DNA from: Vicugna vicugna
Lineage: Eukaryota
Assembly (NCBI GenBank): GCA_013265495.1
Contig: MU058039.1
Coordinates: 994,591-1,058,590, forward strand
DNA: 64,000 bases
Reading direction: 5' to 3'
Under the pieces are notes generated by a model that was given only the letters and a program-made list of their open reading frames with translations, was not told the origin of the DNA and did no database searches. This document shows positions 42,601 through 45,600 of the stretch, one piece after another; positions within the stretch are counted from its first letter, which is position 1; each line of letters begins with the position of its first letter. Made by a program: the position numbers and the translations under genes.

Positions 42601-45600
42601 GGGGGCATGACCAAATGGGGCACAGGGTGCCGGATGACATGCTCCCCTCCACCCTCCAGCTAATCCAAGCCGGCAAGGGTGAGGCCCTGCGGATCCGCGC
42701 CATCCTGCGCTCTCTCGTGCCCCTGGACGACCTCGTGGGCATCATCAGCCTCCCACTGCAGATTCCCACCCTGGGAAAAGGTGCGGAGCTGGTCCCAGCA
42801 AAGGAGTGACACAGGAGAGGAAGCAGAGGGGCCCCAGGGGTAGCCCTGACACTGCTCTCCTGGCCCACAGATGGGGCCCTGGTACAGCCAAAGATGTCAG
42901 CCTCCTTCGTGCCGGACCACAAGGCATCCATGGTGCTCTTCCTGGACCGTGTGTATGGCATCGAGAACCAGGACTTCTTGCTGCATGTACTGGATGTGGG
43001 GTTCCTGCCTGACATGAGGGCGGCTGCCTCTCTGGACACGGTGAGTAGCCTGGCCACCCTCCTGGCCTCCAGAGTGAGGTGGGTCATGGAAATGAGATGG
43101 GTCATGGAAATAGTGCTGGCACTTTTGTTTGTTTTGAACTTGTGTACATATCATAATCCTCACTCCCCATCATCAAGATAGAAAACAGAAGCCACAAAAA
43201 ACTGAGTTCTGGGAAAGGGCGTGTGGAAATCTCCAGTACCTCAGGTTAAGAAAAAGAATTCTCAGTGATGGCTTAGCACTATGGAGACACAAAGACCCAT
43301 GCACAACAATGACAATAATAATAACAGAAGGTGACGAGGCCAAGTAAGATGAGGACTGAGAACTCACCATGGGTTTGGCCAAATGGAGGAAGCAGTTTCA
43401 GTAAGGTGTTGGGGCAAAAGCCTCACTGGAGAGGGTTTAAGAGAGCCTGGGAGGTGAGGTATTGGAGACAGTGAGTGTTGACAGTCAATACAAGTTGGTG
43501 ACAGAGGAGGCGGAGGAATGGTGATGTACTGGAGGGGTGAACTTGGTCAAGAAAAGTCTCTTCTTAAAATGAGAGAAATGACTATTGGCCATTAACTGGG
43601 AAAGAGAACCCTGGGTCTTGAATCTATAATCACCAGTTTATCAGAAATACAAGGGGCAGAGGAACAAGTTAGCTGACACCACTGGGAGGCGGCCAGCCGA
43701 AGCTAAGATGTAGGAAATTCTACTGGATTAATGACTTAGTTTCTTCAGCAAATAAATAGCCTTAAAAGGGGGAGGAAAGGGAGCAGTTACAGGTGTCAGC
43801 CAATACAGTATGTGGACCTTCCTGGGGCCTGATCGAAACAATCCCAGCTAAATGCAAAACCATTTTTGAGACAATTAGAGAAAGCTGACCATGAACAAGA
43901 GATTCCATGAGGTGTTATAATGGCAACATGGAATGTTAAATGGAAGTAGTGGTCTGAATGGAGATACATGTTTAAGTATCTTTGGATGAAATAGTATTTG
44001 GCTGGAGGTTACATGAATTATTACAGGGAAAAAAGGCGAGGTTAGAGGGGAAATAAGCATGCCGAAGGTGGATATCTGCAGAACAGGCTAATCTGGGTAA
44101 TTAATTGGCTCCTGGACTTTTGTGTGTATTTGAAATTTTGCATAGTCCAAAGTAACCAAGGGTAGTAGAGACTGGGAGGAGCAGGTTTCGGGGGAAGATC
44201 AGAAGCCAGGGTCATTTGCCCAGAGTTGTCCTGGGCAGGTGCCTGGAGCTCGCAGAGGGCCTGACGGTCCCACCCTGCGCCCCAGGCCACTTTCAGCACC
44301 ACAGAGATGGCGCTGGCGCTGAACCGCTACCTGTGCCTGGCCGTGCTGCCGCTCATCACCAAGTGTGCGCCACTTTTTGCGGGAACAGAGCACCGCGCCA
44401 TCATGGTGGACTCCATGCTTCACACGGTGTACCGCCTGTCCCGCGGCCGCTCGCTCACCAAGGCGCAGCGCGACATCATCGAAGAATGCCTGATGGCGCT
44501 CTGCAGGTGGGGCGGGACCGGGTGGGCGGGGCTACGGGTGGGGCGGGCCTCGGGGTTAGATAACCCCGCCCCGTGCACGTCCCCGCAGGTACATCCGCCC
44601 GTCCATGCTGCAGCACCTGTTGCGGCGCCTGGTGTTCGATGTGCCCATCCTTAACGAGTTTGCCAAGATGCCGCTCAAGGTGAGGACAAGTTGTCCTCCG
44701 CGTGCTTATTTCCATGCTCCACCCACCAGCTCGCTCCGCCTTCGGACTATGGGGCTCTTTTTGTATCACACAGGCCAGGCCAGTTAATCTGTAGATGTGC
44801 GGGCAGTGGACCCCATAGAAACCTCTTTAGCATTCTCATTTGCATACTAGGATTCCTAGGACATTCACTTTGCGTCATTGGTGCCTCTAACACTCCCTAA
44901 TTGCGTTTAATTCGCCTAACAGTGAGCTGGCCCCCACCTTAATTAGCACATATTTGCGTGGAGCACACCACTTTTTCTAATTAACATGCTTATTCACATG
45001 CTTGGACCACCAGCCTTTCACTATTCAAACGAATGCGTTTATTTGAATAAACAGTACCACAGCTAGCCTGAATATTTGCACACTCTCTCCTATTATTGTT
45101 TCATTTGCATGCTGGCTTGCATAAGGAGATACCCCTAACCCAGATAGTGTAACTATTTTGCATAATACATCTAAATCAGCCCCTATTTCAAATTTGCATA
45201 TTGGATGGTGGAGCCTTCTTTCCAATTACCATATGTTTGCATGGGGTGCTGCCTATGTTTGTATCTGCCTTGTTAATTCACATACACACAGCTCAGTCCA
45301 TCCATATGCCAGTTTGCACATGACCCTACCCATGGATTAATATCTAGCATGCTTATTTATGTAAAGCAGCACCAGACAAATCCAGCTCTGATTTAATGCC
45401 CATCATGGCTCTAAATTAGAGTGCCAAATTTACATAAACTGTCCAGGACCACTTCGCAATATGCATACTATTCCCCCCTTATTAGCATATCATTTGCATA
45501 ACCCACACCTTCATAATTCAAAAGCACTAGCATCCCCTGGGCCTCTCTGGCTCTTCATTTGCCTGCCACCTGTTTGTGTCACACTAATTTGTGTGTCCCC

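Follow-up and report, generated by a model that had tools for sequence, protein, structure and literature searches.

Does the dense, one-way cluster of octamer words within a single intron of this gene constitute a regulatory platform for POU factors, as the initial annotation proposed (an enhancer or chromatin anchor), or has it arisen from repeated local copying of a short word, which the same annotation mentioned as an aside? We examined the cluster in the context of the window, namely the whole 64-kb stretch of DNA that was analysed, which exon translation and the exon chain identify as mammalian RYR1. Exons 2-75, chained under the guidance of human exon sizes, remain open without a stop over 3665 codons; this chain, together with the match of exon 48 to the RyR1 protein, upholds the number 49 previously assigned to the intron (table 1). 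The 15-nt exon 70 has a low placement score and a reading different from the expected one, which makes it uncertain where introns 69 and 70 begin and end. Intron 57 is chained with a GC donor at 48557 (a GC-AG intron), and the glutamate-rich exon 35 (34424-34696, 273 nt) is presumably two codons longer than its human counterpart. Structured RNA searches found no Rfam family in intron 49 and only three tRNA-like SINE heads elsewhere in the window (2897-2968, 35404-35475 and 54022-54092), which have AAAT tails and which we take to belong to a camelid-type family; a sigma-70 scan, irrelevant to a mammal, gave nothing. A recent 41-nt tandem duplication lies in intron 28 (26396-26481; 2.1 copies, 97% matches).

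Table 1. Coordinates of the features considered, in positions of the 64-kb window
Feature	Position	Strand	Remarks
CpG-island-like stretch	44227..44850	.	Over exons 48-49, up to the first perfect octamer
RYR1 exon 48	44286..44506	+	221 nt; matches RyR1 residues 2540-2612 by translation
GC-box-like word tandem	44506..44554	+	Fills intron 48; period 14-16, ~3 copies
RYR1 exon 49	44589..44679	+	91 nt
RYR1 intron 49	44680..45616	+	GT-AG, 937 nt, 44% GC; holds the octamer-word tract
Octamer-word tract	44708..45564	+	14 sites with <=1 mismatch to ATTTGCAT; consensus ~W-H-ATTTGCAT-R
CpG-bearing word variants WWTGCGT	44868..45037	+	4 copies vs 0.12 expected
TRF array	44980..45003	+	Only one in intron 49; 2 copies of a 12-nt unit, each octamer-like
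RYR1 exon 50	45617..45757	+	141 nt
Decayed minisatellite-like tract, intron 7	6935-8062 (whole intron)		One-strand
Decayed minisatellite-like tract, intron 19	15524-16517 (whole intron)		One-strand
Decayed minisatellite-like tract, intron 23	19251-20048 (whole intron)		One-strand
Decayed minisatellite-like tract, intron 24	20357-21129 (whole intron)		One-strand
Decayed minisatellite-like tract, intron 33	30938-32269 (whole intron)		One-strand
Decayed minisatellite-like tract, intron 66	55839-56776 (whole intron)		One-strand
Decayed minisatellite-like tract, intron 71	60554-61993 (whole intron)		One-strand

The plus strand of intron 49 contains four perfect copies of ATTTGCAT (44838, 45103, 45192 and 45492) and ten with one mismatch. 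Six of the latter (44952, 45074, 45156, 45235, 45428 and 45481) had been listed together with the perfect ones, all at the correct positions, and those at 44708, 45041, 45459 and 45557 are added here. Only three further perfect copies occur in the remaining 63 kb of the window. The comparison with dinucleotide-shuffled sequence that the initial annotation had suggested bears out the enrichment: shuffles of the intron yield 0.12 perfect copies (about ten times the earlier estimate of 0.01 per 660 bp, and a fairer figure) and ~1.67 within one mismatch, and none of 5000 attains the observed counts. When the selection of the best word is corrected for, 500 shuffles contain not one 8-mer with 14 one-mismatch copies (maximum 11), and any 8-mer was present four times in 0.9% of 2000 shuffles. 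These dinucleotide-shuffle and best-word tests rule out a chance origin; the one-way octamer cluster in RYR1 intron 49 is real. Its single orientation, as claimed earlier, holds for sites with up to one mismatch (14 on the plus strand and 0 on the minus strand) and does not extend to looser sites: within two mismatches there are 31 plus-strand sites, with ~11 expected by chance, and minus-strand sites at two mismatches are in excess too (16 vs 6.3 expected, reached in 2 of 2000 shuffles), five of them overlapping plus-strand sites. The description of the intron as AT-rich is correct only in a mild sense (44% GC overall, 40% in the core). Similarly, the homeodomain cores said to lie between the words are in modest excess as TAAT (11 vs 5.2 expected; 24 of 3000 shuffles) and not enriched as ATTA (7 vs 6.7), and six of the 11 TAAT copies sit in register within an octamer-like word.

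Among the sequencing runs listed, 14 of 24 hold 0.93-0.97 of 103 sampled words of this DNA, six of these 14 being possible sources of the window itself. Since these runs come from several studies, an assembly artefact is unlikely. The word shares, in which alleles are not seen, suggest a stable intron 49 in two close organisms; the small shares of six RNA runs (0.09-0.20) are not evidence of transcription. A metagenome search for the RYR1 orthologue recovered at least two RYR loci (L001 and L002) among 597 candidate stretches, neither with intron 49 or an octamer tract. Both are short contigs with RYR exons of ~90% protein identity, AT-rich introns and a different layout, and apparently represent non-mammalian-looking, fish-like host DNA.

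The tract is one of many in the gene. When the introns of at least 250 nt were scanned for their best non-simple 8-mer against 100 shuffles each, 16 of 53 showed a word tract above all shuffles, nearly always on a single strand, with intron 49 ranking third by z (10.1). Some of these tracts are microsatellite-like, and the words vary from one intron to another (TCAGACCC in intron 7, CAATGACC in intron 19, AGAGGTCA in intron 23, CCTGACCC in intron 24, ACCCCAGA in intron 33 and GGTCAGAG in intron 66). At 19, 20, 56 and 61 kb, clusters of TGACC[TC] comprise 0/12, 11/0, 0/17 and 10/1 words (plus/minus strand), respectively, the family lying on the minus strand in intron 23, the plus strand in intron 24 and the minus strand again in intron 66. 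Such flips between introns indicate that tract orientation is set locally, as direct duplication would do. The TGACC/GGTCA words of several tracts resemble what we take to be nuclear-receptor half sites. Periodicity exceeds all 200 shuffles in 8 of 42 introns, four of them at ~10 nt and four at 6-7 nt, and TRF reports in intron 33 a 21-nt array of 9.7 copies with 65% matches. The seven minisatellite-like tracts of table 1 have periods near 7, 10, 14 or 21 nt and are mostly below the usual threshold of TRF.

An exon edge is copied in intron 24, in which 48 nt comprising the end of exon 24 and its donor site (20317-20364) recur at 20532-20579, with a score of 41 against a shuffle maximum of 22 and no equivalent in 25 distant introns. 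The copy sits ~215 nt into the intron and retains a GTGAG donor-like word, by which it could act as a cryptic 5' splice site. It is the one clear case among 118 tests of exon edges, whose hits did not in general outnumber those of the reverse-strand control (2 vs 5). No exon-edge copy is present in intron 49, the scores being attained by 18 and 32 of 100 shuffles, and an exon-edge origin of the octamer word is thus rejected. Words of the type CTATGGGG/CCCCATAG, presumably the same as those of bird dot-chromosome introns, recur near exons at 44744-44750, 44810-44817, 15243-15250 and 15606-15614.

Compared with most of its neighbours, intron 49 has a weaker repeat character. A fixed-period minisatellite was not detected in it by TRF, autocorrelation or period tests: the periodicity is not significant across all periods (p 0.17-0.40), nor is the top autocorrelation lag (p 0.29), and no longer repeated blocks stand out beyond the effect of the motif itself, the top scores being reached by 12 and 40 of 300 controls. 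The best period is nevertheless 10.25-10.8 nt in all versions of the test, with p 0.03-0.08 when the test is restricted to the 10-11.5 band, and several pairs of octamer-like words lie 10-12 nt apart. Of the 30 gaps that separate sites within two mismatches, 17 correspond to multiples of ~10.5 nt vs 7.8 expected, in bins picked post hoc, and gaps of 30-33 nt between words number eight vs 1.8 expected. At a distance of 3-15 nt from the word, the flanking sequences resemble one another no more than random sequence would (z 0.6). In the flank comparison, which covered 10 of the 16 tracts (omitting those of introns 13, 17, 22, 34, 37 and 73), seven of the nine others show likeness beyond chance, and introns 66 and 70 are without clear likeness.

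We consider that the tract originated by local duplication of a 10-12-nt word that subsequently decayed, with a probability of about 0.8. Slippage or unequal gene conversion would have copied a unit of ~10-12 nt containing ATTTGCAT within intron 49, head-to-tail and in irregular blocks, and the copies would later have decayed. The one-strand word tracts present in roughly one in three of the larger introns of the gene presumably go back to the same process. Direct duplication preserves orientation, which would explain why all copies point the same way, and enhancer sites need not lie on one strand. The passing suggestion of a decayed tandem repeat thus fits best with the uniform orientation and the 16 tracts among 53 introns. 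That the tract is, beyond this, a neutral relic with incidental affinity for POU proteins is a reading to which we give slightly less than an even chance. It draws support from the frequency of tracts in the gene, their locally set strand, the ~10-nt periods, the transitions that make up the enriched variants of the intron-49 word (with one exception, see below), the exon-edge copy in intron 24 and the stuttering of chicken RYR1 discussed at the end. While enrichment, orientation, neighbouring tracts and periodicity are observed, the history of duplication, its age and the lack of function are what we infer from them. The word happens to equal the POU octamer, so that perfect copies would be able to bind OCT proteins on naked DNA, and no selected regulatory role is needed to account for the pattern. 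The weaker repeat character of intron 49 nonetheless counts against a pure relic and fits selection of the word.

The strongest alternative holds that the array was made by local duplication and that POU binding was then selected, the 11-nt words being kept while the spacers drifted. We regard this as possible, though appreciably short of even odds. The candidate factors would be OCT1 anywhere, OCT4 in early embryo cells, OCT2 and POU3F, and the array could work either as an enhancer within the intron or, together with the GC boxes of intron 48, as an upstream element serving a cryptic antisense promoter in the CpG island of exons 48-49. The conserved information does not extend beyond positions -2 and +8 of the word, a range that equals the span of the TRANSFAC octamer consensus TNATTTGCATW (PMC2475627), which two sites match in full and seven within one mismatch; the position after the word is A or G in all 14 sites and position -2 is T or A in 13 of them. 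Variation peaks at octamer position 5, a tolerant position in POU matrices, where the change of T to A is the sole enriched transversion (6 vs 0.85 expected; 0 of 2000 shuffles), and shows no excess at positions 6-7. Together with the unrelated spacers and the weak periodicity, this transversion fits selection retaining the word, although the same spectrum could also stem from an ancestral repeat that had two variant words. At positions 6-7 there are fewer changes than estimated under even decay (3 vs ~6.6), a difference that is not significant, and position 2, which POU proteins read according to the text available from PMC12755459, is altered in seven sites. The same text has OCA coactivators reading position 5, with an adenine requirement given for OCA-T, of which OCA-B is a homologue; this adenine is present in the four perfect sites and absent in 10 of 27 one- and two-mismatch sites. 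The transition to transversion ratio, 4:6 against 71:46 in other tracts, does not differ significantly (p 0.32), and the unrelated spacers are shared by the tracts of introns 66 and 70. No partner motifs are enriched in intron 49 either: Sox 6-mers show no excess (1 vs 2.0 expected), MORE is absent within two mismatches and present five times within three (19 of 1000 shuffles), PORE and TAATGARAT have no real excess, and three loose Sox-Oct matches score through their octamer half. The consensus match, the unrelated spacers and the variation at position 5 speak for the proposed POU platform, the missing partners against it.

The setting of the tract bears on the same alternative. The CpG and GC-box patch reported beside it corresponds to the CpG-island-like stretch that the tract adjoins, one of eight of at least 300 nt in the window, and to the GC-box-like words of intron 48. 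The CpG-bearing forms of the octamer are limited to the part of the tract beside the island, CpG being nearly absent beyond 45040. The largest such stretch (11601-12340; 740 nt, 50 CpG) surrounds exon 13, which is closely followed on its downstream side by GC-box-like tandem words. In human RYR1 a cryptic antisense promoter has been described within the gene body, and ES cells are listed in the supplement of the same paper as expressing the gene (PMC5997157), by which OCT4 becomes as good a candidate as OCT2. Yet the promoter documented in those passages is at exon 91, outside the window, and not at intron 49; two further gene-body DMRs are given without location in them. It is a precedent, not evidence for the intron 49 site. 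The link to B cells, OCT2 and OCA-B that had been drawn from what we presume to be expression of RYR1 in these cells finds no support, the gene being unmentioned among the literature matches listed. The literature outside subscription papers, bioRxiv supplements and figure images yielded nothing on intron 49, on octamer tracts of this type or on POU control of RYR1, and the same applies to the intron 49 site in the passages drawn from PMC5168824, PMC4350440, 10.1101/212191 and 10.1101/2025.10.14.682431. The cluster is thus previously unreported, yet of a known kind and less singular than at first sight.

The remaining explanations are much less likely. An enhancer assembled site by site through point mutation and selection would agree with the lack of block repeats and of a significant overall period in intron 49; we hold it improbable, given that DNA sites gained independently would not be expected to show a 14:0 orientation, that word pairs lie 10-12 nt apart with an excess of 30-33-nt gaps, and that duplication-type tracts abound elsewhere in RYR1. 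Strand bias would be accounted for if the words bound a protein in the pre-mRNA and tuned the splicing of exons 49-50, since the transcript reads every site the same way, and CTAAY is indeed mildly enriched (6 vs 2.1; 56 of 3000 shuffles). But the motifs TGCATG of RBFOX (2 vs 0.86), ACTAAY of QKI (1 vs 0.47) and YGCY of MBNL (19 vs 20.2) are not, and other word families lie on either strand across introns, all of which leaves an RNA-level element very unlikely. Equally slight are the prospects of an old transposable element or LTR with an octamer-bearing internal repeat, for nothing similar to intron 49 was found in the rest of the 64 kb (best E 2.1), and the intron has no Rfam match and no evident poly(A) tail or terminal repeat. 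Decay of CpG in an ancestral TTTGCGT repeat, to which the four CpG-bearing variants beside the island might be traced, would produce CAT and TGT forms in about equal numbers; they are observed at 12 to 1 (p 0.003), and we find this origin scarcely credible.

If the tract is a relic of local duplication, it carries the caution that such duplication can give rise to one-strand clusters of a well-known motif with very high significance, and that the proper control is provided by the other introns of the same gene. If instead the words have been selected, one of the major genes of myopathy and malignant hyperthermia contains a regulatory element not described before, deep in an intron where exon sequencing misses it. 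A broader and rather doubtful proposal is that mammalian genes derived from ancestral dot chromosomes would carry fossil stutter tracts, left by an instability still active in bird RYR1, and in intron 49 the stutter would have amplified a POU octamer whose copies selection held on a 10.5-nt grid while the spacers eroded, giving a functional POU platform that borders a gene-body CpG island. On this view sequence stuttering would be no bird oddity, and amniotes would long have derived one-way binding-site arrays from it. The wider pattern of tracts already ties a mammalian gene to this avian phenomenon, known to its describers only from birds and gerbils, and the connection is testable genome-wide on existing assemblies.

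How does the tract compare with known systems? Octamer elements occur in immunoglobulin, snRNA and histone H2B genes and homotypic POU clusters are known, homotypic clusters having reportedly been the subject of work by Gotea et al. in 2010. The immunoglobulin, snRNA and H2B elements share with intron 49 the perfect ATTTGCAT flanked by the T and the A that the TRANSFAC consensus has at -2 and +1; they are mostly single sites, positioned close to a start site or combined with other factors, whereas intron 49 has 14 one-way copies ~45 kb into the gene body contained in the window, with no known start site. The exon 91 promoter is similar in belonging to the same gene and to an exonic gene-body CpG island, and differs in its location; the passages describing it do not mention an octamer cluster (PMC5997157). 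Local duplication with subsequent selection, as the POU alternative would require, is a route described for other site clusters. These resemble the tract in that similar words lie within ~50 nt of one another, their flanks no longer match and tandem repeats are seldom detectable (Nourmohammad and Lassig 2011, PMC3188502); those modules are validated Drosophila enhancers, whereas the sites of intron 49 are candidates.

A close parallel is sequence stuttering, in which introns of bird dot chromosomes hold imperfect direct repeats, some of them copied from exon edges, that do not extend beyond the intron; its describers report it from birds and gerbils alone (Hron et al. 2026, PMC12954441). RYR1 belongs to a dot-chromosome synteny group, its chicken orthologue on chr32 being a dot-chromosome gene that the supplement of that paper lists among the exon-stuttering genes. 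RYR1 of the window shares with this system same-orientation, imperfect short repeats that are confined to introns and use a different word in each, as well as an occasional exon-edge copy (intron 24). Its unit of about 10-11 nt also recalls the zebra finch dot introns, for which the available text describes units favoured in multiples of 10-11 bp (10.1101/2025.10.17.683159). Intron 49 differs in being far more decayed and perhaps in its lack of length variation. Stuttered introns are filled with imperfect direct repeats that TRF or self-BLAST reveals; TRF gives only 2 x 12 nt in intron 49, and intron 33 shows this feature weakly. Lacking both a TRF-level array and exon-edge copies, intron 49 is not classed as a member of the stuttering group. 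Its tract looks like an old product of a process similar to stuttering.
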